DNA of 64,000 bases from Eledone cirrhosa (lineage: Eukaryota), in the NCBI GenBank assembly GCA_964016885.1, contig OZ024742.1:74958001-75022000 (forward strand), read 5' to 3'. The notes below the pieces were generated by a model. The model was not told the origin of the DNA. It ran no database searches and saw nothing but the letters and a program-made list of their open reading frames with translations. Numbering within the stretch: the stretch's first letter is position 1; every line of letters starts with the position of its first letter. Shown here in pieces: positions 1 to 48,340 of this stretch. The translations under genes and the position numbers were made by a program.

Positions 1-284
1 TTCTGAATCGAAAACGTTACTTGTATATTTCTTTATAAATGTAATATAACAACGTTGCATTTATATGTTAAAGTGTATGTATCGTTCATATATCATAAGT
101 GTATGTATCGTTCATATAAATAGGTGTTTTACAACACACTTACAGTTCAAACACTTATGTAGAATTATTGTATGTAATCTTACCGCGTAATGTAGCTCAA
201 CTTTTTCCAATATATGGTATGTTGCCTTCATGTAAGCCGTAATTACACACGTCCGATTATCGGACACTGACCACAACGGTCGCC

Positions 285-286
<2 letters not shown>
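1..286 (-). mobile_element. 5' UTR end of an R4/Dong-like retrotransposon (family A) continuing off the left edge
   Basis: 1-136 aligns with 20200-20336 (5' UTR of the family A copy) and extends about 150 bp further before an (ATGT)n array. Confidence 0.75.
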
Positions 287-315
<29 letters not shown>

Positions 316-356
316 TGTATGTATGTATGTATGTATGTATGTATGTATGTATGTAT
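287..356. repeat. (ATGT)n microsatellite; further arrays near 965, 1662, 2346, 5934, 6604, 16389, 20337, 20670, 36884, 38016, 38323 and 40892
   Basis: Directly visible. Confidence 0.98.
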
Positions 357-964
357 GTCAGGTCACCAGTTGGTGCTACTGGTAACATGTATCCCAGTAC
401 AACCTGTCTCATGATCGGGTCGTTGGCGACTAAACTGGCAACCCCACCAAGGTTTCTTGATGAGGAGGGTGACTTTGGACATCCTGCAGGACTAAAATCA
501 AAACCTGTCAAAGGGCAAAGGAGCTCTTAAGTGTCAATGGCCATCCAAAATCACCGGGAGAGATGACCCCTTAGCATTTGTCAAGGCAGAATTCTAGGAG
601 AAGGAAAACTCTGATATAACACCTGCAACCTTGATGGTATCCAATGATGTTGACTTGTTCTTCTTTTTGGTAAATATCATCTTGGTTAAGAGAGTGGGAC
701 TGGCTTTGTGCAGTGCCTTTGCTCACTATAAAAGCTTCACGACACAGGCATTGCTTTATATCTGGAGATCTCGCTGCACTTGTCGTCATATAGTACCATG
801 GGCCCAGTACTATGTGTCAATAATTGTCACAAGTGTAGTGTTTGTACCAGAGTTTTCAAGTCGCTGGCTGGGCTAAAAAGTCACACTCGTTCAGCGCATC
901 GGTAGGGGTCCTCCTACATGGATATAAAGTAGTGGCCGTACTCGAAAACGAGTTGGCAGCCACC
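357..964 (+). mobile_element. Non-autonomous RTE-derived element, subfamily 1, full length
   Basis: Near-identical to 1740-2345 and 34680-35287; 822-905 encodes [27 protein letters not shown] (C2H2 typical of RTE C-termini); 3' hairpin CTCG-AAAA-CGAG followed by a microsatellite. Confidence 0.8.
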
Positions 965-1051: not shown

Positions 1052-1662
1052 TTCTTCCGGTTTTATAATTTCCCAAAGTTTTTCCCAATGGAGAGAGAGT
1101 AGGTTTCTAACATAGTCACAAGACTCTCTCCTTGGAATTGACACAACATCAACTAGGTAGATTATGTCTGCACGTATGCATGCATGTGTAGATATGGATG
1201 TTATTGCATGTGTGGATGTGTATGTTTTGAGTTATATGTGTGCATGTGTATATGCTTTGTATCTGTACATGTGTACATGCAGTTATTAGATGCAAAGGTT
1301 TTGGAATGTTTTACATATTTTTACTGTTCCATTAATAGATTGTACTTGTAATTTCCTAACTAGTTGTGTTCTTTCTGTTCCTGTGAAGCCTAGCTTCTCA
1401 AGATTTGTATTGAGTCAGTTACTAACATACCCCAGTGCCCCAATAATCACAGGCATAAATCTGAAGGTGTAATCAGGTGGAGTATCTGCAGATTTCTCAT
1501 TAGTTCTGTATAAATATTCTCCGTTTCGCTAATCTTAGATATTATATTGGCATCTGCTGGGCAGCTAATTTCCACTACTGTGCATGCTTTCTTCTCCCTG
1601 TCCTATATATCTGGTCTATTATGCCTGCATTTTATTGGGGTTTTTACTGGAACATTCTACCA
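1052..1662 (-). mobile_element. 5'-truncated R4/Dong-like element, family B (RLE C-terminus and 3' UTR)
   Basis: Aligns with 38336-38942; flanked on both sides by (ATGT)n. Confidence 0.85.
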
Positions 1663-2345: not shown

Positions 2346-2368
2346 ATGTATGTATGTATGTATGTATG

Positions 2369-5300
2369 TTTTCTCTTTCTCTTAATTTCGAGTATATTTT
2401 TTTGACCGGCCACCTTCCTGGTGGCAAGGTTGAAAAAGAAAAAAAATTGTCATGCCTTGAATCGCAAGAATGTTTTGCAAATTTTGAAGGTGCCAGCTAT
2501 CGCAGCCATTTGCAGACTATGAATTAGGGAGCTGCGCTTTTTGTCCGCAAATCCAAGTTCAGTCATACTTTGGTCCAAGCGGGTTGGTATATAACCCGTA
2601 GCACCAATAATGATGGGTATGAAGCTAAAGGTGTATCTTGGATACTGGATTTGTAAACTCCTCATCAATGGTCCGTAGATGTCCTCCTTCTCCTGTATTT
2701 TTCTGACAACGTTTACACAAGTGGGCAGCTGATCTCCACAACAGAACACGTTTTCAATGTGTGGTCCCAAACTACAATATCAGGCCGGTTGTGCTTTAAT
2801 TTGGTGGCAGTTTTTATTTTCAGGTTCCACCAGTATTACTTAGTGCCATCTGTCTCAATATATTCTTCCTCGTTTGTTGTTAATTTTGTTTTCCGAAGTG
2901 CGTTCCAGATGGTTCTAGCTATCCCATCGTGTCTCATGGGGAGGTAGTAGCGAGATGACATTCTTTCGCAGCGGGCAACAATGTGGCTTACATCCTCGAT
3001 CTTTGTTTTACATAGCTTACATTTATTGTCAGCTGCTGGCCCTCCTCTTTTGTGCAGCAGATATTTGGTAGGGAGTTCTTGTTCCTGTAATGCATAGAGA
3101 TATCCCTCAAGGTGTGATGTCATAAACTTGTCGGAACTCCATGCCAGGCTTTTTGAGTGGTTTATCCCCTCTATGGTCTGTGATTTACGCCTCAAGTATC
3201 CATGCACAACCTTTTCTGCAAATTGGTCAATTTTCTTATCTTGTTTGAACATTGAATAGGATTTTCCGATTTCTCTGGGTGAGAGATTTATATCAGGCTT
3301 TATTCCATATCTCTCCTCCAGATCAGTCGCTATTCTAATGATATTTCTGTTTTCATGCTCATAAACCTGGGCAAGATGGTTGCCAACCTTTTTCCTCTGT
3401 TGAAGGTGTTGCTTCAGTGTTACTATCCGGGTCTCATATGTTGTTAATATTGATTTTAGACCCCGGCCACCTTCCTTGCGTGAGAAGTATAGCCTATCCA
3501 CATCACCATTGATGTTAAAGTTGCCAGTAACACTGAGAAGTTTTCGAGTTCTAACATCCATCTCACTTAGTTCTTGCAATGACCAGTTCAGTAGGCCAAA
3601 TGTTGGCGTTAGAATTGGCACAGCATAAGTATTGTGGGCAATGTATTTGTTGTATGCTGACAGTTCTGATGACCATATTTTCTTTACTCTTCTGAGGTAT
3701 TCAGTTCTGGTTCTCTCCTTATTTATGGGTCCATCATATCTGACATTCTCATCCTGTCCAAGATATATGTAGTTGTCACCTGACTGCAGAGGTTGTATTG
3801 TCAGGCCGTTAATCTCTAGATTTCTAGTGGAGGGCACAGCTCTTCCACGTTTTACTGCCATATATGCACACTTGGACTCACCAAATTTCATTTTGATGTC
3901 GGTTGAAAATTGTGTAATGAGGTCCAATTGTTTCTTGATGTCATTGATATTTGGCCCATACAACTTCAGGTCATCAACAAAGAAAAGATGGGAGATACTT
4001 CTGGGCCCACTTCTTTGTCCACCTTGTTTCCTGAGTAGGTAAGATAGTGGATTCAGTGAGAGAACGAAGAGTAGCACTGACAAGCTATCACCCTGAAAGA
4101 TGCCCTTCTGGTAATGTATCTTATCAGTCTTAACCTGCTCCTTCTCACCTCTAAGGATCAAACTGGTGTACCAGTTCTTGGTCAGGCGTTCAACAGCAGC
4201 TACCAATGGTTGTGGGACTTTAGCTAACTGTAAAGCCTTAACAATCCACCCATGAGGTACACTATCAAATGCTTTTTGATAGTCCAGCCACACGACAGTC
4301 ATGTTTCTGCGATTCTTTGTTGTTTTTTCCTGAATCATTTTGTTAGTTAGTAGGTGATCTATGCAACCCCACACCTCCCTCTTTCCACCAGCTTGCTCAG
4401 GTGTTATGATGTTGGTAGCACAGTGATCCTGTAAGAACAGGTTAAGGCACCCAGTATATAATTTATACATGATGTTTTGGCAGGCAATTGGGCGGTAATT
4501 TTTAGCAAGGGTGGTTTGGCTATTTTGGGGAATGAGGAGAGTAGTGGCAGTTGATAACCATCTGGGCAGTTCTTGTGTGCCCTTAATGGTTTCTGTAAAC
4601 AGCCGTATGAGATCTTGCCGATAGAAAGTGAAATTCTTCAACCAGTATCCTGTAATGAGGTCTGGGCCTGGCGATTTCCTATTCGACATTTTCTGTAGAG
4701 CTGTTTTCAGTATTGACCCATCTATGTCATATTGTTTTGTCTGGACATGTTGGCAGTAGTCCTGTTCCAGTTGTTTTAGCCAATTAGTTTGTCTGTTGAA
4801 TCCGTCATCCGTTTCCCATACAGATCTCCAGTAGCTCTCAACCTGTTCTTTTGAAGGGGTGTCGTTTACAGGGATTGAGCTTTTGCCACCGAAGCTGCTA
4901 TAAACTGATTTAGGATCTCTGGCAAACAATCTATTTAGCACTTGTCGTTTATGTGCTGTTGACTTATATTTTAGTCTTTCTGTTGTAGCTGTGAGTTGCT
5001 GTTTCAACTGGTGTAATTTGGAGTTCAAAGTTTTAAATTTTGTATCTCCAAATCGTCTCTCTAACTTTTTCTTTAGGTCTTCCTGGTGTCGTGTGAAGTT
5101 GCTCTCTATGATGCATTTCATAACGACTGCGATGTGTGAGATACTTCGTCTCAGGGACAAAATTTTGGTTTTTAAATTACGCATCCACGCTGGTTCAGGC
5201 TTTCCGTTTGTATCTTGATTGCGTGGTTTTAGATGTATGTTATATGATAGCAATGTGACAGCTGAAACATATAACAAAACATTAAGCGTTTCAAATGTCG

Positions 5301-5933
5301 TTTCTACACCTTTAGATCGTATAGCCTTCAGATAACTGCCAGCTATTTCGTTCACCGCTTCCAATTCCAATTTAGTGGGTTCTTTACTGATTCTGGTGTT
5401 GTATGGTCTGTCACTCACAGTAAGGCTGTGTATCTCTTGAAACATATCGTTCCATATCACTTGTAGGGTGTCCACAAGTTTTTGGTGCTCTGTTTGTTCA
5501 GTAGAGTCATGAATTTCAGACTCGTTGTTGATGTGGTGACAATTACTACTAGAGTCAGCTGACCTTTCTCGCTGTTCTTCAGTGGAAGTGGGATGGATTT
5601 CAGCAAAATTGTTGATGAGCTGTTCACTGTTAGATTTAGCTGGCCATTCTCTTTGTCTGTCAGTGGAGGTGGGGTGGTTGTCTACAAGGGCTGTATTTGT
5701 AGTATCACTCAATTCCGTTAGATGTATCAATTTACATCTAATGATACGTTTTGCCTGTTCATTTAAATGCTTTGGAGAAAAGTCTAATTCTGGGTGTTTG
5801 GAGTTCCATAAAGTTTTTAGCCTTTGCATAAAACCGAACTTTTGGGGTTCAGATTGTTTGTATGCTTCATATAATACTTTGTTAAGCTCGTAGCTCCACT
5901 GTATACAGCGGTTGTAGTTGCGATTTGGTCGAA
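2369..5933 (-). mobile_element. R4/Dong-like RLE non-LTR retrotransposon, family A copy 1 (slightly 5'-truncated, disrupted)
   Basis: RT motifs KSPGPD, YRPIAC, LDYQKAFDSV, GIFQGDSLS, FFVDD; CCHC knuckle CKLC..H..C; RHD; premature stop at 2836 and a frameshift near 2718; (ATGT)n at both ends. Confidence 0.92.
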
Positions 5934-6065
5934 TGTATGTATGTATGTATGTATGTATGTATGTATGTATGTATGTATGTATGTATGTATGTATGTATGT
6001 ATGTATGTATGTATGTATTATGTATGTATGTATGTATGTATGTATGTATGTATGTATGTATGTAT

Positions 6066-6602
6066 GTCGAGTCACTCTTGTGTGCTACCGGTATTATGTA
6101 ACCCAGTACAACCTGTCGCATGGTCGGGTCGTCGGCGACTAACCGGCCACTCCACCAAGTTTACTCCTTGGTGAGGAGGGTGATTTTGGACACCCTGCAG
6201 GACAAAAAACAAAACCTGACAAAGGGCGGAAAAACTCATAAGAGTCAACGGCCATCCAAAAGTGTGTAAATGTGTATATACACATGTACCGCACAGTTAA
6301 ACCACTGGGAATGAACGACCCCTAGCCTTTGTCAGGGCATTCTTCTAGGAGGAGGCAACTCAGGAAACTGGGATAACTCCGATATAAAACCTGCGGCTCA
6401 GTAGTTACCGATGATGTTGATATTTTCTTCATTTCAGGTTATAGCTACTGTCGCAGAGAGAGTGGGATTGGCTCAGTGCACAGCCTTCCCTCACTTTAAA
6501 AAATATCTTCACGCACAGGCATTGGACGATGGAATTAATTAATAACTATTAATAATGGTATATCATGCAATGTCCATACTCGATAACGAGAGGGCAGCCA
6601 TC
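6066..6602 (+). mobile_element. Non-autonomous RTE-derived element, subfamily 2
   Basis: 5' ~450 bp is a diverged homolog of 357-750; 3' hairpin CTCG-ATAA-CGAG and GGCAGCCATC end; ATGT flanks; no C2H2 segment. Confidence 0.75.
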
Positions 6603-7200: not shown

Positions 7201-7601
7201 CTGCCGGTTGGTTTTGTCCGTAAATTCTGGATTATAAAGAGTGGAGGAACTACATCTTGCTTCTATATTTTGTGACTCGGTGTGAGAGCGCCTATATGTA
7301 TACATGAGAGAAGTACTATTTACAAGCTCATAACACGTCTTCCAATCTCTTGTAATCCTTTCTTTTGCTTACTTTTTTATTTTTATTTTCAATCTCTTTT
7401 TCATTCTTCTTGCTAGACAAATCTTTGATTTGGGTTCTTCTATAGGGCGTCCACATGCATTTCTATCGCTGTAGCCATTCTGTTTTTACGTGTGCATGTG
7501 TTCGTGTCTATGTGTCTGCTGGTCTATGTGTAGGTAAGAGGGAAGCTCTTATCCTGTCTGTCTGTATTTATTTCTTCATTCTAGACAGACCTAATGTTTG
7601 A

Positions 7602-7602
<1 letters not shown>

Positions 7603-7692
<90 letters not shown>
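7603..7692. repeat. (TG)n microsatellite
   Basis: Directly visible. Confidence 0.97.
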
Positions 7693-7693
<1 letters not shown>

Positions 7694-7746
7694 ATGCGAG
7701 TTCTTGCTAGCATTTTTATCCCTTATACTTTCTTTCTTCTTTTCAG

Positions 7747-9253
7747 GAAAGCGGTGTATGATGGTAGCGTGAAGTTTGCAAAAGCCCTTGTGAAGTTCGG
7801 AATTAAAAAAAGAGATTACGTGGCTGTTTCTGTAGGTAACTGCGTAGACTTGATGATTTATAATGCTGGAGTTATCATGGCCGGAGCAATTTCAGTTAGT
7901 GTGGCAGTAAACTCACTGGACATTGGCGTTCTTATACAAGGATGCAAAGCTGTGATATTCGATTCGAAAGAAGCATTAGAAACATTGTTTAAAATTGCTC
8001 AAATTTCCGACAATAGTAAAATTGTAAGTGAAATATTCCCAGAATTGAGATTAGTTATTTCAATCTCCAACACATATTGTCCACCTAACGTTTTATCTGC
8101 TACAAAACTTATGACGGATATCAATGACAGTGAGGAAATAGCTCTACCTTATTTGGATCCGGAAGACATCGTTATTATCAGTAAAACCTCTGGTACTACT
8201 GGCCAACCAAAAGATGTCTATCACTCTCATTTTAGTTGGTTGAATTGTGCACGTGAAATGATGCATCTCTGTAACATAACCTCAGATGACGTAACATACA
8301 GCAGTCGTCCTATGTTATATATCGGTGGCTATCCATTCGGTCTGATGACGGTAGGAACCACTCATGTAACAGGAAATGTTAAACTACTAAACGACAATAA
8401 TAACCTAAAATTTATTCAAAGTATATGGGAAAAGGAACGGTGTAATATACTCTGGCTTCTTCCACAACATCTAAAATTATTCAGAAATTGTGGGTATCTC
8501 TCTAAAGTAACTATTTCTGGTGGAGATATGCTTACAAATGAATTAGTAGAGAATTCCTTATCTTTTAGTCAAACGGTAGCCGTCGTCTACGGCAGTAGTG
8601 AAGCTACATTTGTAGGTATACGGTTATTTTCAAAAGAAAACATTTCTGAACACATTCCAAAAATGATTGGTAAACCCATGCCCGATACAGAAGTAAAAAT
8701 TGTAGACGATAACGTAAAAACACTTAATATAGGAGAGGTTGGCAATATATATATTCGAAATAAATGGACAAGTAAAGGAAATGTGGCTGGTGCTTCACTA
8801 ATTAAAAATGGTTGGCAGCCAATGTCAGATATAGGTTACATGACACAAGAGGGGGATATTTTCATGATAGGAAGAGATAAGGATTTTATCAAGAAGTATA
8901 CAGTGAAACTATCTATCAAAGCAATTGAAGAATATGTCAGTTACTTTCCTGGTGTACTTTCTGTGGTCGTCGTTCCAATACCTGACGAGGAAGTTGGTGA
9001 ACGTGTGTGCGCCTGTGTTACTATTGAATCGAATCACGAATTCAATGAAGAAGGATTCAAACAGTTAAGCTTGGAAAGAATGCGAGGGGAAGACAATATT
9101 GATATCGTATCGATGATCCCGGATTATTTCTTGCAGTTTATACATTTCCCCTTATTAGCCAGTCAGAAATTTGATAGAACAACAATCAAATCATCGGCAA
9201 TTGCTCAGATCGTGCAATTGAATAAAGATAGAAAAATTACAAACATAAAGTAA
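7747..9253 (+). CDS. ANL-superfamily acyl-CoA synthetase-like (ACSF2-like) protein, large terminal exon; first exon probably upstream of the window
   Basis: TSGTTGQPK P-loop, YGSSE, SD..GR, C-terminal Lys; pyrimidine tract and TTTCAG acceptor ending at 7746, same position and phase as in the paralog. Confidence 0.9.
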
Positions 9254-15578: not shown

Positions 15579-16440
15579 GAGAGAGAGAGATGCCGATGTT
15601 TTCTTTGTACTTAATACGAATGAGCATCTCCAGCCGATATTTCAGACAAAAAAGCTTAGAAGCGCCAAACTTATACTTACCGAGTAAATGTCACCGACGA
15701 TGGATAAATATCCAGAAACACGTGTTTGACATTCTCATACGGTTGCTGAGATAGCTATTATATTATCGCACATTACAATATTCGTAGAGAGGCTCATATA
15801 TGCTTATTATACTTAAACATATGCCTTCATATACACCTTTATTATGAGCCACACTACCCATAAACAATTGTTTTATGGGAATCTTGTTCATGGAAAAGGA
15901 AACAGTGTAAGGTGAATTAAAGGAGAATTTGAAAAATGTAGCAATTGATAGAATAAACTTGGAAATCTCGCAACGGATCAATTTACTCGGCGTTCAAAAA
16001 TAGGGGATGTTGTGAAAACCTTTAGCCAAAACATAATAATAATTCAAGTAAACATTAAGAGGAAAACAGCTGATGCCTGAATGGAAATTGTCAGTGGGCA
16101 GATTTGAATGGTCATACACAAAGATGACGTCCCGAACTATCAACCAATCGGAGTACTGCGCAAACAGGATGAAAGCAGATGATAGAAGTTAGAAGGGTCG
16201 GAGTCCAGCAGTAAGAGGATTTGCTTCGAAATCACTAGACGTACCTGAGGAACTTGCGAATCCAGAGTCAAGTTCGATCCACAAACAGATCGCACCTCGA
16301 GCTGTTCGTCGGAGAAACAATTGTAATACGTAATAAATTGTATCCGATGCATCACGGATTCTTCGTTTTCCATATTATATATATATATGATGTATGTATG
16401 TATGTATGTATGTATGTATGTATGTATGTATGTATGTATG

Positions 16441-19400
16441 TTTTCTCTTTCTCTTAATTTCGAGTATATTTTTTTGACCGGCCACCTTCCTGGTGGCAAG
16501 GTTGTAAAAGAAAAGAAATTGTCATCCCTTGAATCGCAAGAATGTTTTGCATATTTTGAAGGTCCCAGCTATCGCAGCCATTTGTAGACTATGAATTAGG
16601 GAGCTGCGCTTTTTGTCCGCAAATCCAAGTTCGGTCATACTTTGGTCCAAGCGGGTTGGTATATAACGCGTAGCACCAATAATGATGGGTATGAAGCTAA
16701 AGGTGTATCTTGGATACTGGATTTGTAAGCTCCTCATCAATGGTCCGTAGATGTCCAACTTCTCCTGTATTTTTCTGACAACGTTTACATCAAGTGGGCA
16801 GCTAATCTCCACAACAGAACACGTTTGCAATGTGTGGTCCCAAACTACAATATCAGGCCGGTTGTGCTTTAATTTGGTGGCAGTTTTTATTTTCAGGTTC
16901 CACCAGTATTCCTTAGTGCCATCTGTCTCAATATATTCTTCCTCGTTTGTTGTTAATTTTGTTTTCCGAAGTGCGTTCCAGATAGTTCTAGCTATCCCAT
17001 CGTGTCTCATGGGGAGGTAGTAGCGAGATGACATTCTTTCGCAGCTGGCAACAATGTGGCTTACATCCTCGATCTTTGTTTTACATAGCCTACATTTATT
17101 GTCAGCTGCTGGCCCTCCTCTTTTGTGCAGCAGATATTTGGTAGGGAGTTCTTGTTCCTGTATTGCATAGAGATATCCCTCAAGGTGTGATGTCATAAAC
17201 TTGTCGGAACTCCATGCCAGGCTTTTTGAGTGGTTTATCCCCTCTATGGTCTGTGTTTTACGCCTCAAGTATCCATGCACAACTTTCTCTGTAAATTGGT
17301 CAATTTTTTTTCTTGTTTGAACATTGAATAGGATCTTCCGATTTCTCTGGGTGAGAGATTTATATCAGGCTTTATTCCATATCTCTCCTCCAGATCAGTC
17401 GCTATTCTAATGATATTTCTTTTTTCATGCTCATAAACCTGAGCAAGATGGTCGCCAACCTTTTTCCTCTGTTGAAGGTGTTGCTTCAGTGTTACTATCC
17501 GGGTCTCATATGTTGTTAATATTGATTTTAGACCCCGGCCACCTTCCTTGCGTGAGAAGTATAGCCTATCCACATCACCATTGATGTTAAAGTTCCCAGT
17601 AACACAGAAGTTTTCGAGTTCTAACATCCATCTCACTTAGTTCTTGCAATGACCAGTTCAGTAGGCCAAATGTTGGCGTTAGAATTGGCACAGCATAGGT
17701 ATTGTGGGCAATGTATTTGTTGTATGCTGACAGTTCTGATGACCATATTTTTTTTACTCTTCTGAGGTATTCAGTTCTGGTTCTCTCCTTATTTATGGGT
17801 CCATCATATCTGACATTCTCATCCTGTCCAAGATATCTGTAGTTGTCACCTGACTGCAGAGGTTGTATTGTCAGGCCGTTCATATCTAGATTTCTAGAGG
17901 AGGGCACAGCTCTTCCACGTTTTACTGCCAAATATGCACACTTGGACTCACCAAATTTCATTTTGATGTCGGTTGAAAATTGTGTAATGAGGTCCAATTG
18001 TTTCTTGATGTCATTGATATTTGGCCCATACAACTTCAGGTCATCAACAAAGAAAAGATGGGAGATACTTCTGGGCCCACTTCTTTGTCCACCTTGTTTC
18101 CTGAGTAGGTAAGATAGTGGATTCAGTGAGAGAACGAAGAGTAGTACTGACAAGCTATCACCCTGAAAGATGCCCTTCTGGTAATGTATCCTATCAGTCT
18201 TAACCTGCTCCTTCTCACCTCTAAGGATCAAATTGGTGTACCAGTTCTTGGTCAGGCGTTCAACAGCAGCTACTAATGGTTGTGGGACTTTAGCTAACTG
18301 TAAAGCCTTAATAATCCACCCATGAGGTACACTATCAAATGCTTTTTGATAGTCCAGCCACACGACAGTCATGTTTCTGCGATTCTCTGTTGTTTTTTCC
18401 TGAATCATTTTGTTAGTTAGTAGGTGATCTATGCAACCCCACACCTCACTCTTTCCACCAGCTTGCTCAGGTGTTATGATGTTGTTGGTAGCACAGTGAT
18501 CCTGTAAGAACAGGTTAAGGCACCCAGTATATAATTTATACATGATGTTTTGGCAGGCAATTGGGCGGTAATTTTTAGCAAGGGTGGTTTGGCTATTTTT
18601 GGGAATGAGGAGAGTAGTGGCAGTTGATAACCATCTGGGCAGTTCTTGTGTGCCCTTAATGGTTTCTGTAAACAGCCGTATGAGATCTTGCCGATAGAAA
18701 GTGAAATTCTTCAACCAGTATCCTGTAATGAGGTCTGGGCCTGGCGATTTCCTATTCGACATTTTCTGTAGAGCTGTTTCCAGTATTGACCCATCTATGT
18801 CATATTGTTTTGTCTGGACATGTTGGCAGTAGTCCTGTTCCAGTTGTTTTAGCCAATTAGCTTGTCTGTTGAATCCGTCATCCGTTTCCCATACAGATCT
18901 CCAGTAGTTCTCAACCTGTTCTTTTGAAGGGGTGTCGTTTACAGGGATTGAGCTTTTGCCACCGAAGCTGCGATAAACTGATTTAGGATCTCTGGCAAAC
19001 AATCTATTTAGCACTTGTCGTTTATGGGCTGTTGACTTATGTTTTAGTCTTTCTGTTGTAGCTGTGAGTTGTTGTTTCAACTGGTATAATTTGGAGTTCA
19101 AAGTTTTAAATTTGGTATCTCCAAATCGTCTCTCTAACTTTTTCTTTAGGTCTTCCTGGTGTCGTGTGAAGTTTCTCTCTATGTTGCATTTCATAACGAC
19201 TGCGATGTGTGAGATACTTCGTCTCAGGGACAAAATTTTGGTTTTTAAATTTCGCATCCACGCTGGTTCAGGCTTTCTGTTTGTATCTTGATTGCGTGGT
19301 TTTAGATGTGTGTTATATGATAGCAATGTGACAGCTGAAACATATAACAAAACATTGAGGGTTTCAAATGTCATTTCTACACCTTTAGATCGTATAGCCT

Positions 19401-20335
19401 TCAGATAATTGCCAGCTATTTCGTTCACCGCTTCCAATTCCAATTTAGTGGGTTCTTTACTGACTCTAGTGTTGTATGGTCTGTCACTCACATTAAGGCT
19501 GTGTATCTCTTGAAACATATCGTTCCATATCACTTGTAGGGTGCCCACAAGTTTTTTGGTGCTCTGTTTGTTCAGTAGAGTCATGAATTGCAGCCTCGTT
19601 GTTGATGTGGTGACAATTACTACTAGAGTCAGCTGACCTTTCTCGCTGTTCTTCAGTGGAAGTGGGATGGATTTCAGCAAAATTGTTGGTGAGCTGTTCA
19701 CTGTTAGATTTAGCTGGCCATTCTCTTTGTCTGTCAGTGGAGGTGGGGTGGTTGTCTACAAGGGCTGTATTTGTAGTATCACTCGATTCCGTTAGATGTA
19801 TCAATTTACATCTAATGATACGTTTTGCCTGTTCATTTAGATGCTTTGGAGAAAAGTCTAATTCTGGGTGTTTGGAGTTCCATAAAGTTTTTAGCCTTTG
19901 CATAAAACCGAACTTTTGGGGTTCAGATTGTTTGTATGCTTCATATAATTCTTTGTTAAGCTCGTAGCTCCACTGTATACAACGGTTGTAATTGCGATTT
20001 GGTCGAAGGAGACTTGTACTTTTTGCCATGATGAGTTCGTCTATTCACTAATATTTTGTATTTATTTTTTTTAAATAGTCGATGATCTTCTTTAAAAGTT
20101 ACGACAAAGTTCTGTCAGAATCAAATTTAAAGTTATTCACAGCTTGGGTAATATTTCTTTTCAGTTAGTTTTTAATTCTACAACTGTGTTTTAAACGTTG
20201 TTCTTGAATCGTTTGAATCGAGAACAAAAAGAACCGTTACTTAGTATATTCCTTTACGAATGTAATATAATATAACAACGCTGTATTTATATGTTAAAGT
20301 TTATGTATCATTCATATAAATAGGTGTTCTACAAC

Positions 20336-20336
<1 letters not shown>
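16441..20336 (-). mobile_element. R4/Dong-like RLE retrotransposon, family A copy 2, near full length with three frameshifts
   Basis: ORF pieces 20029-19493, 19701-17587, 17636-17265 and 17280-16522 give N-terminus, RT, CCHC, RHD, RPDIV..D and EISCP nuclease; highly similar to copy 1; (ATGT)n at both ends. Confidence 0.93.
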
Positions 20337-20366
<30 letters not shown>

Positions 20367-20445
20367 TGTATGTATGTATGTATGTATGTATGTATGTATG
20401 TATGTATGTATGTATGTATGTATGTATGTATGTATGTATGTATAA

Positions 20446-20669
20446 TGCACAGGCATTGCTTTATATCTGGAGATCTCTCTGCACTTGTCGTCACATGGTA
20501 CCATGGACCCAGCACTATTTGCCAATAATTGTCACAAGTGTAGTGTTTGTACCAGAGCTTTCAAGTCGCTGGCTGGACTAAAAAGTCACACTCGTTCAGC
20601 GCATCGGTAGGGGTTCTCCTACATGGATATGAAGAAGTGGCCGTACTGGAAAACGAGTTGGCAGCCACC
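20446..20669 (+). mobile_element. 5'-truncated RTE-derived element, subfamily 1
   Basis: Matches 743-964; between two (ATGT)n arrays. Confidence 0.8.
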
Positions 20670-24454: not shown

Positions 24455-27400
24455 CTTAGTCTTAGTCTTAGTTACTCCAGTCCCTTGTGGAACATTGGGC
24501 AACGAGCTTCCTCCACTTGATCCTGTCACTGGCGGCCCTTCTAGCACCTCTCCAGGTAATTCCCATCTCCCGCAGATCCTCTCTGAATGTTCTTCGCCAT
24601 GTTTTTCGTGGTCTTCCCCGTTCTCTCCTGCCACCTTCTGGTACCCAATCCATGGCAATATGAGCAGGTCAATCTGCTGGCAAACGAAGGATGTGGCCCG
24701 CGAACTGCCGTCTCCTTTTTCGGACAATGTCCCTTAACCTCTCCAATCCTGACCTCATCACTTCCTCGTTGCTAACTTGGTCTATACACGAAATTTCAAT
24801 ATGGTCCGAATGCAACGATGGTGGAATACATTAAGCTTGTTACATACACTTTCCGTACTCTTCCATGTCTCACAGGCATATATCGCTATTGGTACTACAA
24901 TGGACATGTAAACACGGAATTTGACGGCGTTGCCGATGGAACACCTGGACCATACCGGACGGAGTCGCTGGAAGACCGCCGCTGCTTTTCCCAGCCTTGT
25001 GCGCACATCCACCTCAGCATCCCCATCGTCAGAGATGTTGCTGCCAAGGTATTGGAAGTCGTTTACACATTCAATGTTACGCTGACCAAACATGATGGGA
25101 GGATTTGGACGGTCACCTGTCGACATGGTCTTGGTTTTTTCACAACTGATGCGCAGGCCAACTTTCTCTGCATTGTCATTTAGAACGTTTGTCACCTCTT
25201 GCAGGTCTTCTCGGGAATGGCCTATCACTGCGATGTCATCGGCAAAGTCCTGGTCGCTTAATTTCCTTCCATCCCAACTGATGCCAAAACGAGGGTCACT
25301 CATTGTCCTCTTCTTGATGAAACGAGGGTCACTCATTGTCTTCTTCTTGATGAAACGAGGGTCACTCATTGTCTTCTTCTGGATGAAACGAGGGTCACTC
25401 ATTGTCTTCTTCTTGATGACAATGAGGAAAAGGAAAGGCGAAAGGATGCAGCCTTGTCGAACACCCGTCAAGATGTCAAACATTTCCGTGTTTCCGTCCT
25501 TTGTCCTAACGCAGCACCTGGAATGTCGGTACAGCGACCTGAAGATGTTAATATATTTCTCTGGGACACCGTAGAGTCTTACAATCTTCCACAATGACTC
25601 CCGATGAACACTGTCCAAAGCTTTCCTGAAGTCAATGTAGTTGACAACAAGGGACTTGTGGAACTCCCGACATTGTTCAATGATATTTCGGAGAGTGAAG
25701 ATCTGCTCTGAACAAGACCTTCCACAGCGGAAGCCAAACTGTTCGTCTCGAAGATGACGATCTACTTCTGCTCTCAGCCGGTTCAGGATGACTGTGCAGA
25801 ATACCTTCCCTGGCACTGATAGCAACGTGATCCCTCTCTAGTTGTTGCAGTCGCTGAGACAGCCCTTCTTCGGTAGTGGTACAATCACTCCATTTCCCCA
25901 GTCCTCCGGCACCTCCACTTCTTGCCAAATCACATTGCATAAATGGGTGAGCTGCTCCTCTATTACATCCTTGCCGTACTTCAGAAGCTCTGCAGGAATC
26001 TCATCGATCCCTGCCGCTTTGTTATTCTTTTGGCAGCGGATGGTCTTGGCCACCTCAGCTCTTGTGATGTCGTCTAGTCGTACATCCATCCGGTAGCTCG
26101 CTTCCTCTCAGTCAAGCTCGAAGACTGTGTTGGGGGATGGCCGAATGTGTTCGTTCCACCCCTGGGCCTGCTCTTCACTGGCTGCAAGTATCCGACCATC
26201 TTTGCTCATGATTGGCAAACTGCTTCCACTTCGTCCTCCAGTTAGCTCTCTGACAATCCGGTACAGCGTCTTGGAATCATTTCGATCTGCTTCCACCTGT
26301 GCCTCTGCAGCCCGATCTTCTAAGCACTGGCGCTTGTATTTTCGACAGCTCTTCTTTACTTCCTTGTCAAGACGTCTGTACTCTTTGTCCACTTCCTTCC
26401 ATTGCTGTCGAGTTTTGGTTTGATCTCTTTTGTTCTTAACATCCTTCCTCTCGTGAATGAGATTACAAGAAGTACTGCTGATCCACTGTTCCCAGTTGGT
26501 CCCACTTCTTCTACCGATAACTACATCAGCACTCGCCCTGACCGTCTGAGCAAACATCTGCCACTGGTCCTCACGGTTCTGTACGTGCTGTAGTTCTTGG
26601 AACTTATTCCTGATCTCCGGGTAGAATCCCTCTGACGTGGATTGGTCTTCCAGGCTTGCGACAGCATATGGCCTCACGATCTTATTTGCTTTGTTCTTCT
26701 TCAACGTCAAGCGGATTTTTCCAACCACAAGATGATGGTCAGATCCGACGTCTGCCCCTCCGTAGGTGCGAACATCGAAGAGAGAGGAACGCCACCTCGT
26801 GCCAATGCAGATATAATCAATCTCATTCCTGGTGTTGCCATCAGAGGAAGTCCATATCATCTTGTGAATCCGCCTATAGGTGAAGAATGTATTCCCGATG
26901 GAGAGGTTACTGATACTGCTCAGGGACAGCAACCGTTCCCCGTTGTTATTGGTGGAATCAGTTGAACCGTGGGGGCAAATGGCTGAATGCATTTCTCTCC
27001 TGTCTCCATCTAGCTTGGCATTGAAGTCTCCAATCACCAGCCTAATGTCTGACCTGGCTGTTTCCTCTAGGACATCCTGTAGTTGGATAAAGAAGGTATC
27101 CTTATCTTCATCTGAGACAGTTTAAGTCGGGGTGTAGACTTGCATTACGGTCACCTTGGCTAACCTTGTGCTCAATCTGGCAGTAATAATTAGTTCACTC
27201 ACTGGCCTCTATCCCACAAGAGCCCGTGATACATCTCCGGTGAGGATGATACCAACTCCGTGGACATGGTAGTCATCATCACCGGAGTAGAGAATAGTCA
27301 TGTCTCAGCTGTCGAGTCCTCCCCGTCTTGTCCACCTCGTCTCCCTGATTCCCATGATGTCAAGGCGATATTCTCTCATCTCTTTCAGCACCTGCTCCAT

Positions 27401-34679: not shown

Positions 34680-35285
34680 GTCAGGTCACCAGTTGGTGCT
34701 ACTGGTAACATGTATCCCAGTACAACCTGTCTCATGGTCGGGTCGTTGGCGACTAAACTGGCAACCCCACCAAGGTTTCTTGGTGAGGAGGGTGACTTTG
34801 GACATCCTGCAGGACTAAAAACAAAACCTGTCAAAGGGCAAAGGAGCTCGTAAGAGTCAATGGCCATCCAAAATCACCGGGAGAGATGACCTCTTAGCCT
34901 TTGTCAAGGCAGAATTCTAGGAGAAGAAAAACTCTGATATAACACCTGCAACCCTGATGGTATCCAATGATGTTGACTTGTTCTTCTTTTTGGTAAATAT
35001 CATCTTGGTTAAGAGAGTGGGACTGGCTTTGTGCAGTGCCTTTGCTCACTATAAAAGCTTCACGGCACAGGCATTGCTTTATATCTGGAGATCTCCCTGC
35101 ACTTGTCATCACATGGTACCATGGGCCCAGCACTATGTGTCAATAATTGTCAGAAGTGTAGTGTTTGTACCAGAGTTTTCAAGTCGCTGGCTGGACTAAA
35201 AAGTCACACTCGTTCAGCGCATCGGTAGGGGTTCTCCAACATGGATATAAAGTAGTGGCCGTACTCGAAAACGAGTTGGCAGCCA

Positions 35286-35287
<2 letters not shown>
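34680..35287 (+). mobile_element. Non-autonomous RTE-derived element, subfamily 1, full length, inside (TA)n
   Basis: Near-identical to 357-964. Confidence 0.8.
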
Positions 35288-38232: not shown

Positions 38233-38335
38233 CGTGAACGTGACCCAACGGGCGGTCTAGTAGTAAATAATCTTCCAAGAGGAGATAAGTTACTTGGTTA
38301 ACACTCATAAAAGGAAAAGTAAGTATGTATGTATA

Positions 38336-40891
38336 TTCTTCTGGTTTTATAATTTCACAAAGTTTTACCAATAGAGAGAGATTCGGTTTCTAACATAGAC
38401 ACAAGACTCTCTCATTGGAATTTACACATCAACTAGGTAGATATGTATATATGCATGCATGTGTAGATATGGATGTTATTGTATGTGTGGATGTGCATGT
38501 TTTGAGTTGTATGTGTGCATGTGTATATGCTTTGCATCTGTACATGTGTATATGCAGTTATTAGATGCAAAATTTTTGGAATGTTTTACATATTTTTAAT
38601 ATTCCATTAATGGATTGCACTTGTAATTTCCTAACTAGTTGTGTTCTTTCTCTTCCTGTGAAGCCTAGCTTCTCAAGATTTGTATTGAGGCAGTTACTAA
38701 CATATCCCAGTGCCCCAATAATCACAGGCATAAATCTGAAGGTATAGTCAGGGTGGAGTATCTGCAGATTTCTCATCAGTTCTGCATAAATATTCTCCTT
38801 TTCACTAATCTTTGATATTATATTGGCATCTGCTTGGGCAGCTAATTTCCACTACCGTGCATGCTTTCTTCTCCCTGTCCCATATCATATCTGGTCTGTT
38901 ATGCCTGCATTTTATTGGGATTTTTACTGGAACATTCAACCAGTACTCTTTCATATTATGTACATGGATGTCTTCCACATTGCTGTAGCTTTTAATGTGT
39001 TTATTATCGGGGCTACCTTTTTTTACGAACTGAATGGTACAGTATTTTGGCCACTACATCATGCCTCATAGGTAGATAGTACCGCGATGACATCTTTGGA
39101 CAGCTGCTGATGACATGGGTGATATCCTCGATGTTAGTTCTGCAGAGTCTGCACTTGTTATCACATCTAGGTGTTTTGCCTGCATCCCTATCTCTTTTGT
39201 GAATCAGGTATTTCGTTTTAATCTCCTGTTCCTGGATTGCAAAAGCATATCCTTCAAAGTGGGAGCCAATATAGTGGTTGTTGGTCCAAGATAGACTACT
39301 TTTCTTATCTATATTACTCTCACTATGGAGCTTCCTGGCAATATATCCATGCATGATTTTTTGCTGATAGGCATGCAGTTTTTCATCCATGGAATCACTG
39401 CGATACTGCTGAGCGTCATCCCTGGGTGTGAGTTTTTGATTATCACACGGGGAATATCTCTCGAGAAGTTCCTTCCCAACTCTCATGATCTTATCTGTTT
39501 CATGCAGATAGACTTGCTCGAGAAACGGGCTCCTACGCTTCGAAGTTCGTAGATGTTGTCGGAGAGATATGATGCGACATTCAAATGTTGTCTGGACTGA
39601 TGTTAGGCCTCTGCCTCCCTGCTTACGTTTCAAGTAAAGGCGGTCTATGTCACTGTTGGTGTGGATGTTTCCGGTGTTGTTCAGTATTTTTCGAGTACCA
39701 AATTCAACTGCTCGGATTTCGTCTATCGTCCAATTGAGTATTCCAAACGTTGGTGTTAGGATAGGCACAGCAAACACATTGTGAGCCACTGTTTTGTTTT
39801 GCGCAGTGAGTTCCGATGATCAGATCTACGCGTTCTTTATTACAGATATCTTTGTTGGTGAGGAGTGAGGTTTTTTTCTGTTTGTTTTCATGTAAGGAGC
39901 ATTGTCACATATCCTATATTTTTTCGTAGGTCAGCAATCTTTTTTTCTATTTTAGTTATATATGATGGTATTTTTGGTGGTGTTCTGTTCTTGTTAATAT
40001 CTCTGCTATCACCAAGATAATGCTTCACTGTCGTTGCTAGGGCATATAAACAGGCGTTGATTTGCCAAAATGTTGGGGTTTTTATCCGTCGTAAATATTC
40101 ATCCCCTATTTCACCAATAACACGTAATATTTCATTATTTGTTTTTTTATTAAACATTGTCGTTTTAACACGTTCAGCAAGAGAGATATTTATACATGAG
40201 TTAATTTCTCTCTGGAAGATTTCGTTGAGGGAAATTTTCAATTGTTTATACTTTTGATTATCATTATCGATAGTATTTTCCACAACAGTCGAGGTAGACT
40301 CGGATGGTACACGTGGTGTCAAATTTCTTCGATTATTATTATTATCGATAGTGTTTTCCCCAGCATTCGAGGTAAACTTAGATGGTACACGTGGTGTCAA
40401 GTTTCTTACAGGCATAGTTGTTTCAAGACGCTGTGCGACCTGGCTGCTAAGATGTCTAGTAGCATGGCGACCTGTAGCACGTGTTGTTGATAACATGTTT
40501 ATTGTGGGGGATTGTTTTTTGCCATTTTATAACAATTAAATAAATCATTATTAAGTTCGCAACCCCAAGAGAAATGCGATTTATAATTTCGGTTTCTTCT
40601 GTAGCTACGACTGAATAAAGTTTGATTACCTTCCTTGTTATTTGTCTTCGGTACTTCCTTAATATATTTGTTGATGTTGTGTTCAACCATGCTCCTTGTA
40701 AAATGAATTATGTATTTAGTCGGATATCTCTACGAATTCGAATCAAAGGTGTCTTCAGAAGGTATAGTTAGGAGAATAACCAGTTATTCAACCTGACTGT
40801 AGTTGTGGCATTACTCTCGGAGATAGTATTCATCTTAAATTTAATAAATAGTCTCCCACGCCAAAATATGCGACTGATCACGTTGACTGTC
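38336..40891 (-). mobile_element. R4/Dong-like family B element, both ends present, RT deleted
   Basis: N-terminus RNRNY..W..ELN..L..CY homologous to family A; junction near 39825 jumps to AHNVFAVPILTPTFG; CCHC, RHD and RLE present; ATGT flanks. Confidence 0.85.
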
Positions 40892-46731: not shown

Positions 46732-46854
46732 ATATTAAATTTATAATGCGATTAATATTTAAATGTAAAATGGTCGTTGTGATAACATGGCATATATTTT
46801 TATATGAAAGCTATTGCCATATGCATTAGTTCTATTTTCATTGTTTTATTGCAG

Positions 46855-48340
46855 AAAACAAGTTTACGATGGCGCAGAAAATTTTGCCAAAGCACTGGTT
46901 AACTTAGGAATTCAGAAAGGTGAGTTAGTTGCCTTCTCTGTATCCAACTGCGTTGAATGGCTAATATATGAGATCGGCATAATGATGGCTGGAGCAATTT
47001 CAGTAAGATTAATGCTTGGATTGGCAGATTTTAAAACAGTATTATATGGCTGTAGCTTAGTCATATTTGATTCCGAATATGTTTGGGAAAATTTTCTTCG
47101 TCTTGCTGAAGTTTCAGATAATGGGAAGGTTTCGAGTGAAATATATCCGATGTTGAGATTAGCCATTGCTGTCTCAGAAGCCGAGCGTCCTGAAAATGTT
47201 TTATCTGCAGCTCAACTGATGGCAAATGTAAGTAACAAAACTGATATAATCTTACCATACATAAGTCCTGATGATATTGCTATAATTGCACAATCATCCG
47301 GTACCACTGGTGTTCCTAAGCGAATTTGTCACTCACACTTTAATTGGATTAGTGGATTTTATGTACTTCACATTGATATTGGTGTTACTGAAGAAGATAT
47401 TGTTTATTCTAGCCGTCCGATGGGTTATGTTGTAGGGAACCCAACAATGTTTTTATCACATGGCTGCACACATGTCACGGGAGATGTGAAAATGCTAAAT
47501 AACAACCAAAATCAAGATATAATCATGGACTTGTGGAAGAAAGAAAAATGTAGCATAATATGGATGGTTCCACAAAAATTAAAACTAATAAAAGATACAG
47601 GGTTTCGAGTAAGACGTATTTTATCGGGAGGTGATTTGATACTAAAAGAGTGGATTGAAAATACATTTCACATGGCAGAGAAATTTTCTCTTGTATATGG
47701 ATGTACAGAAGCTGTAGTAATATCGCAGAGATTATTTTCCAAGGAAGATATTGACCAACATCAACGAGGAATGTTAGGTAGACTTCTTCCAGATTCTGAA
47801 GCTAAAATCCTTGATGAAAATAAAAAGATTGTCCCATTTGGAAGGCACGGATCTCTGTACCTTCGTAGTAGATGGATGCAAAAGATATTTCAAGATGGTA
47901 GCTCTTGCTTAGAAGATGGATGGTTGGCTACTTCAGATATTTGTCAATTGATGCCCGAAGGTGATTTGATAATGATTGGAAGAAGTACAGATTTTATTAA
48001 AAAATCTATGGTGAAATTATCCATAAAAGTTATTGAAGAATATGTCGGGAATCACCCCAGCGTTGAAGATGTGGTTGTGGTTCCAATACCGGATGAACAA
48101 TTTGGTGAATGTATTTGTGCATGTGTTACAATTGTATCAGGTCATAAATTCTGTAAAGATAATTTACTGAAATTTTGCACAGAAACAATGCCGCTTCCAA
48201 GTAAATTTGACCATGTAACAATAGTTCCAGATTATTTCTTACAGTTTACAAGTTTTCCAAAACTTGCCAGTGAAAAATTTAACAAAACTTCCATAAAGGC
48301 TTCAGCCATTAAAATAGTGAATGAGTCATATGGAAAGTAG
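46855..48340 (+). CDS. Acyl-CoA synthetase-like gene 2, exon 2 (spliced product about 543 aa)
   Basis: SSGTTGVPK, YGCTE, TSD, GR, VVPIPDE.FGE; acceptor TTGCAG ending at 46854; colinear paralog of 7747-9253. Confidence 0.92.

Follow-up and report, generated by a model that had tools for sequence, protein, structure and literature searches.

A young R4/Dong-type retrotransposon family of Eledone cirrhosa with (ACAT)n microsatellites as its very probable target

A stretch of 64,000 nucleotides (nt) from Eledone cirrhosa, referred to here as the window and used for all positions below, contains copies of a Dong-R4-type retrotransposon, family A, whose ends lie against arrays of a tetranucleotide that reads ACAT in the sense of the element and ATGT on the + strand. 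We regard it as close to certain that (ACAT)n is the true target of this family and not just its 3' tail, because 5' truncation points, and not only 3' ends, adjoin (ACAT)n with one polarity.

All five family A ends in the window adjoin + strand ATGT arrays (286, 2369/2370, 5932/5933, 16441/16442 and 20336/20337), with the element antisense to the ATGT strand at each, just as the original prediction from these letters had it; both 3' junctions also read as it gave them, GAGAAAGAGAAA meeting ACATACAT. The three 5' ends differ, as it had noticed: that at 285 is the true end, that at 20336 is cut 324 nt into the 5' untranslated region (UTR), and that at 5932 is cut inside the open reading frame (ORF). 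Copies and arrays are given below, with identities to L143, an intact copy that serves as reference for the window copies.

16442..20336, - strand: copy 2 of family A (Dong-R4-type), lacking the first 324 nt of the 5' UTR and carrying three indels; 99.3% identical to L143 over 3,895 nt
16522..20029, - strand: ORF remnant of copy 2 (1,169 amino acids in intact copies)
2370..5932, - strand: family A copy 1, truncated within the ORF, with a stop and a frameshift in the endonuclease region; 98.0% identical to L143
1..285, - strand: true 5' end of a full-length family A copy (L170) whose body lies upstream of the window; 97.4% identical to L143
16389..16441: (ATGT)13 array adjoining copy 2 on its 3' side
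20337..20443: (ATGT)26 array next to the 5' truncation of copy 2
2346..2369: (ATGT)6 between the 3' end of a family B element (described further below) and copy 1
5933..6067: ATGT array where copy 1 is truncated
286..358: (ATGT)18 array next to the 5' end of the full-length copy

L170, which comprises window positions 1-285 and the part upstream, has ACAT on both sides. Copies 1 and 2 are 97.7% identical to each other and both are defective in the way originally claimed: relative to L143, copy 2 carries indels near 19553, 17605 and 17312, and copy 1 an in-frame 3-nt deletion, a premature stop at 2836-2838 and, further down, a 1-nt deletion. The predicted ORF limits (ATG at 20029, stop at 16522, 1,169 amino acids) are correct. 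The intact ORF that was to be reconstructed from the two window copies does exist, but the reconstruction proved needless, natural intact ORFs being present in the genome.

The genome searched (3.0 Gb) contains at least 2,090 family A 3' ends, counted by an exact 20-mer and therefore a lower bound, since variant ends exist. ACAT comes next at 1,552 of these and N{0,1}CATACATAC at 1,327; with the latter pattern as positive control, TAATAA follows none of the 2,090, so that family A is not Dong in the strict sense, and the ATGT strand likewise follows none. For the 5' flanks, the first 80 matches in positional order, minus one inside another stretch, gave 79 loci; L156 had no terminal alignment, leaving 78 copies, 66 of them young (at least 96% identity) and 12 old (below 96%). 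With at least four ACAT within 40 nt before the alignment start as the test, 63 of the 66 young copies passed, or 64 once L157 had been resolved as a full-length copy that is ACAT-flanked and interrupted by an insertion; among 113,840 genomic background positions, from an evenly spaced sample of 400 kb, 0.66% passed. ACAT stands at the truncation point in 53 of 55 truncated young copies, the genome-wide enrichment that had been set beforehand as a check, and no copy had the ATGT orientation upstream. The 3' phase is ACAT at 61/66 young junctions and CATA at 9/12 old ones. Background arrays of at least 20 bp numbered 315 for AT, 49 for AC, 35 for AG, 18 for ACAT and 8 for AAT.

Family A is a restriction-like endonuclease (RLE)-type retrotransposon without long terminal repeats (LTRs), with a reverse transcriptase (RT), CCHC and RHD motifs, a PD-(D/E)xK-like endonuclease and a fixed 3' end. 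No LTRs were found across the 78 copies, in which 5' truncation is variable. The full-length element (L143) measures 4,221 nt and has a single ORF of 1,169 amino acids and, in its 5' UTR, a tandem repeat of ~140 nt. RVT_1 and zf-RVT are the sole Pfam matches in the protein, with no APE domain among them, and the C-terminus carries restriction-like motifs. The R4/Dong-type architecture that had been proposed (one ORF, RT, CCHC knuckle, restriction-like endonuclease motifs) is borne out. Protein motifs fall at residues 622 (QGDSLS), 660 (FVDD), 980-997 (CCHC), 1009 (RHD), 1058 (RPD) and 1075 (EISCP), and the window holds the following.

18040..18051, - strand: RT catalytic motif FVDD, from motif position and RVT_1 (E 3e-24 on copy 1)
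17041..17094, - strand: CCHC zinc knuckle, then the RHD motif (16999-17007), from motifs and zf-RVT (E 2e-6)
16560..16900, - strand: restriction-like endonuclease (RPD at 16852-16860, EISCP, K..Y), from motifs aligned with relatives
19802..19978, - strand: candidate Myb/SANT-like three-helix domain, residues ~18-76, with RPNRxY just before it; a lead from predicted helices, Atlas and alignment

FVDD was rightly named as the RT motif of the window element; it is a subclade trait, present in 19 of 153 RT segments, and not a peculiarity of this family. For the N-terminus, an alignment-based structure model gives three confident helices at residues 22-74 (predicted local distance difference test, pLDDT, ~97), and Atlas puts Myb families first (Myb_Rap1 0.85), which we treat as a lead; no zinc-finger match was found there in the Pfam search. 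Fold searches with the N-terminal model, which included a coiled coil beside the Myb-like part, returned coiled-coil matches only, and folding the complete ORF from its sequence alone gave nothing usable (pLDDT 34.7). A 5' hepatitis delta virus (HDV)-like ribozyme was sought with Rfam, which gave no match, and with a descriptor search, which came back empty for family A and equally for the TAA-family control described below. The 5' UTRs of three distant ACAT elements (L143:581-720, L358:88-200 and L359:115-225) have GGACGTGTG in common, and the same regions form a long predicted hairpin whose basal stem is compensatory, GUGUAAU/AUUACAU versus GUGGAU/AUCCAU, among these three sequences only.

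Natural 1,169-amino-acid ORFs occur in 4 of the 79 positional copies (L092, L136, L143 and L147, with 5-14 residue differences), and a 1,174-codon open frame surrounds ~43 of the 150 best RT matches, counted by eye. Eleven of the 78 copies are full length and the rest are truncated at scattered 5' points; 27 of the 78, L143 itself included, are at least 99% identical to L143. Judged by these identities, family A is young. A search for RNA data containing the element listed none, which has no bearing on whether it is expressed.

The same genome houses a TAA-targeting, Dong-like family, represented by a relative in a background stretch (L232; L232:1-1607) with 29% full-length identity to family A. 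A pattern search found 2,957 exact 3' ends, where a DNA search had come back empty, and TAA adjoins 30/30 3' ends and 11/13 visible 5' ends. Its RT motif is YMDD, as read in L342 (a copy whose open frame spans 1,071 codons), and the family lies outside the FVDD clade. That two R4-type lineages of one assembly occupy different microsatellites speaks against an artefact of assembly.

Other relatives share the target of family A or a shifted form of it. The window contains two pieces of such a relative, family C.

38325..40891, - strand: family C, an older ACAT-flanked Dong-R4-type element, internally deleted copy; from zf-RVT, relatedness to A and flanks
1053..1661, - strand: family C fragment, 5'-truncated, between ATGT arrays (array at 1662); read against the family C sequence

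Family C and family A proteins share 43-52% amino-acid identity, and the two families agree in target and polarity. At family C loci picked by the family's own 5' sequence, CATA repeats stand at 20/20 5' ends, and ACCAGAAGA is followed by ACATAC at all 14 3' ends seen. A metagenome scan yielded seven relative loci, L358-L364, and the flanks of L358-L363 were examined. L358 and L359, from a single assembly and 45% identical to A, are CATA-flanked at both ends with the polarity of A. L360 (L360:1-60), of the FVDD clade, has (TACT)n, a one-base variant of the target, at its 5' end; it is one copy, and its 3' flank is not a repeat. L361 and L362 had no informative flank. L363 (29% to A; L363:3820-3867) is a main-clade element that ends in (ATT)n with polarity opposite to that of the TAA family here. 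CATAC repeats likewise terminate two A-related families of 70% and 83% nucleotide identity (L005:1903-2758 and L028:911-1072).

In an RT tree of 158 segments, A, C, L358-L361, an Argonauta hians protein (the nearest named protein to family A, at 52%) and ten unnamed proteins form one clade with support 1.00 and a stem of 0.51, within which A is sister to the Argonauta protein; the tree relies on unnamed relatives, without a named R4 or Dong reference, and is rooted on an unnamed distant protein. Directly before the Myb-like tryptophan, RPNRxY is common to clade members with an aligned N-terminus (RRNRDY in L360) and is lacking in all four aligned outside elements. Family A resembles the TAA-targeting element over its full length and R2 in the RT region only, which lends indirect support to placing its RT with R4, Dong and Rex6 rather than R2, NeSL or HERO. 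A subclade-level target shift within a known class of site-specific retrotransposons is well supported and goes further than the original prediction.

In the model developed for R2, a nick leaves a 3'-OH that primes cDNA synthesis, after which the second strand is joined. For family A, the protein would recognise the (ACAT)n repeat and carry out target-primed reverse transcription (TPRT) into it in fixed orientation. Because 3' junctions carry ACAT in young and CATA in old copies at the frequencies given above, we infer that the nick made by the endonuclease falls on the ATGT strand, with ...ATGT-OH or ...ATG-OH as the exposed end. From this free 3'-OH, cDNA synthesis would start at the 3' end of the RNA (...GAGAAA), and the cDNA would finally pair by its own end with the ACAT strand over 1-5 nt; microhomology of at least 2 nt is present at 16 of 36 clean truncation junctions, compared with a null of 18.5% (p = 3e-4; 52 junctions were scored and the other 16, with extra or divergent bases, were left out). 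Recognition may lie mainly with the RPNRxY plus Myb-like N-terminal module, putatively binding repeats upstream of the nick, and the Myb-like domain is at least as good a candidate for the carrier of specificity as the endonuclease, to which the original prediction assigned it. The shift from TAA to ACAT was likely single, on the long branch to the FVDD subclade. A fixed long target-site duplication was ruled out, as 16 of 65 copies allow 6 nt or less. We consider protein-directed TPRT into (ACAT)n in this manner probable.

That an array was present before insertion is suggested by the flanks: AT interruption of the 5' and 3' sides correlates (rho = 0.53, p = 5e-6, n = 65), as expected if a single pre-existing array was split, and variant motifs are common to both flanks more often than by permutation (16 versus 8.8, p = 0.003). 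Several observations weigh against protein-directed targeting of such arrays. Ten of 11 motif-level flank correlations are not significant, AT interruption being the only one that is, and regional mutation bias could produce it. An empty allele was not found in the contigs of four runs, which yielded only one loose 3' end (X7; + strand, 118 records) starting with ATGT and then TTTCTCTTTCTC. Specificity falls short of absolute: the two exceptions among the young copies adjoin (ACAG)n and (AT)n; the 5' end is at (ACAG)n in L099 and at (AT)n in L146 and L238, and of the three family A fragments met in the background sample, one has an (AT)n flank. Among the 12 old copies, 2 pass the flank test at the alignment start and 7 after chaining past later insertions. 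The Myb assignment is only an Atlas lead, with no Pfam match for the N-terminal domain. Finally, perfect runs measure 42 nt upstream and 17 nt downstream, which also fits repeat synthesis; either the protein depends on repeats that lie upstream of the nick, or further repeats are added at the 5' junction.

This last point belongs to an alternative that we consider possible although rather unlikely, in which short ACAT seeds or AT-rich repeats are targeted and the element builds much of the array at its 5' junction, through slippage of the RT or through repair synthesis. The perfect ACAT run on the 5' side exceeds that on the 3' side in 48 copies and falls short of it in 14 (p = 5e-6), the summed 5' and 3' arrays have a median of 69 nt compared with a background median of 12 nt (arrays of at least three units), 14 of 66 young copies score a single repeat of the first four bases on the 3' side, and L146 and L238 are located in (AT)n. 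However, length-weighted target choice would likewise give long arrays, ATGT or AT arrays are already carried by family B copies without family A, 22 of the 66 young family A copies lie within 200 nt of an end of family B or its relative, and flank interruption is common to both sides of the element. Array building can also be compatible with protein-directed targeting, in that an element may be a maker of microsatellites as well as a user.

Guidance by the RNA seems to us unlikely; in this reading a loosely specific protein would be steered by read-through ACAU repeats at the RNA 3' end, which pair with the ATGT strand once it is nicked. The fixed 3' phase favours it, tandem A and C copies would permit read-through, and homology arms can redirect R2 insertion (PMC13708176). 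Against this, the target has been kept across four lineages at ~45% identity along with a subclade-specific protein motif, whereas under RNA guidance alone one would expect drifting targets. It is highly improbable that insertion is random or AT-biased, with (ACAT)n as a 3' tail and the 5' arrays as tails of neighbours or assembly artefacts. Copies do often stand in tandem with other repeats, but 53 of 55 truncation points fall directly at ACAT with strict polarity, hardly any use is made of the commoner (AT)n, (AC)n and (AG)n arrays, the TAA family of the same assembly has a different repeat at both ends, and independent metagenome assemblies concur. Going beyond targeting by family A itself, we put forward tentatively, at somewhat less than even confidence, that an old, widespread and hitherto unrecognised R4/Dong subclade (FVDD, RPNRxY-Myb) moved from (TAA)n to tetranucleotides (ACAT in four lineages, TACT in a fifth), now shares genomes with TAA-Dong and with a non-autonomous family that targets AT/ATGT in the opposite polarity, and makes arrays longer on entering them.

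The non-autonomous family, family B, and the remaining features of the window are as follows.

20448..20669, + strand: family B non-autonomous retroposon, 5'-truncated, in the same array as copy 2 and with polarity opposite to A
359-964, 1742-2345 and 34682-35287: other family B copies
6068-6602: related to family B
7595-9253 and 46808-48340, + strand: long open frames of AMP-binding (acyl-CoA synthetase-like) host genes that flank the region, with no link seen to family A
24782-25837, - strand: fragment of a further RT-bearing element (RVT_1 E 1e-26)

Family B is a 606-nt non-coding retroposon with 26,704 exact 3' ends in the genome. Among 30 copies, 16 are 5'-truncated, AT comes next in all 30, and most lie within (AT)n or (ATGT)n arrays with polarity opposite to A. 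Its 5' part may resemble the 5' UTRs of RTE elements; a partner long interspersed nuclear element (LINE) was not found in a search confined to 30 loci. As a microsatellite-targeting non-autonomous family it may be a separate finding. A mixed ACAT/AT array a kilobase or more in length, with pieces of families B and A and spurious 'ORFs' of up to 1,158 amino acids, was seen at L163:1-4250.

How restriction-like retrotransposons change target is an open question with relevance to gene-insertion tools, and most work so far has concerned R2 and 28S ribosomal DNA (rDNA). With TAA- and ACAT-targeting R4/Dong elements side by side, this genome is likely a natural system for studying target change; since natural intact ORFs are at hand for both (L143, 1,169 amino acids; L342, 1,071 codons), together with a (TACT)n-flanked relative, domain swaps can test the Myb-like module against the endonuclease. 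If the subclade history proposed above is true, TAA, TACA and TACT would form an allelic series from which to read the DNA-recognition code of these elements, with dozens of natural intact ORFs. For cephalopod genomics, the results on family A show a major active LINE class to be confined to microsatellites, which touches ideas of LINE-driven brain variation and the use of ATGT markers.

The original prediction suggested that the target was new, which is at most partly right, and the occurrence of R4/Dong elements in octopuses as such is already on record. Five active Dong-R4 families with 1,129 insertions (4.73 Mb) are annotated in Octopus (O. vulgaris and O. bimaculoides), at ~4.2 kb each, like family A (PMC13282606), and a full-ORF Dong consensus exists for O. 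bimaculoides (PMC9115989). Dong-R4 is described as abundant and active in octopuses in PMC13282606, PMC9115989, PMC10294476 and PMC8967140, the available portions of which name no target site for it; an orthologous family is probably present in octopus repeat libraries, set beside family A by description only. The portions available of PMC3636483 and PMC13708176 hold nothing on an ACAT target, and no such target for R4/Dong appeared in the literature searched, which did not extend to Repbase, Dfam, Kojima and Fujiwara 2003/2004 or Fell et al. 2025; on balance we lean towards its being unrecorded for this clade. As a microsatellite target in general, ACAT is known from Waldo, discussed below.

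The nearest solved proteins by sequence are those of R2 (9nl3, 9dou and 8gh6; RT region E 3e-28), which serves as the model for the TPRT steps; R2 differs in its target, 28S rDNA, and in an N-terminus that combines zinc fingers with Myb (PMC7998251). Dong, of the R4 clade (Bombyx mori Dong, DongAg, DongBg and Darwinula Dong), occupies (TAA)n in most insects, molluscs and cnidarians, and a divergent Myb/SANT domain without N-terminal zinc fingers is described for R4/Dong (PMC7998251); 5' HDV-like self-cleaving ribozymes are reported from R4 and B. mori Dong (PMC3774820). Family A is like Dong in its single ORF with RT and restriction-like endonuclease and its microsatellite target, and may also share the divergent Myb/SANT-like N-terminus without zinc fingers (PMC7998251, PMC3812793), but differs in the repeat, (ACAT)n rather than (TAA)n, and in the FVDD and RPNRxY of its lineage. 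Other elements target the microsatellites AC (Mino), TC (Kibi) and TTC (Koshi) (PMC3812793) or (TG)n (Togen; PMC4640811). Closest in target is Waldo of the R1 clade (WaldoAg1, WaldoAg2 and WaldoFs1), which inserts into ACAY repeats, ACAT included (PMC3812793). Unlike family A, Waldo has an APE-type endonuclease and belongs to another clade, and their common target would be convergent.

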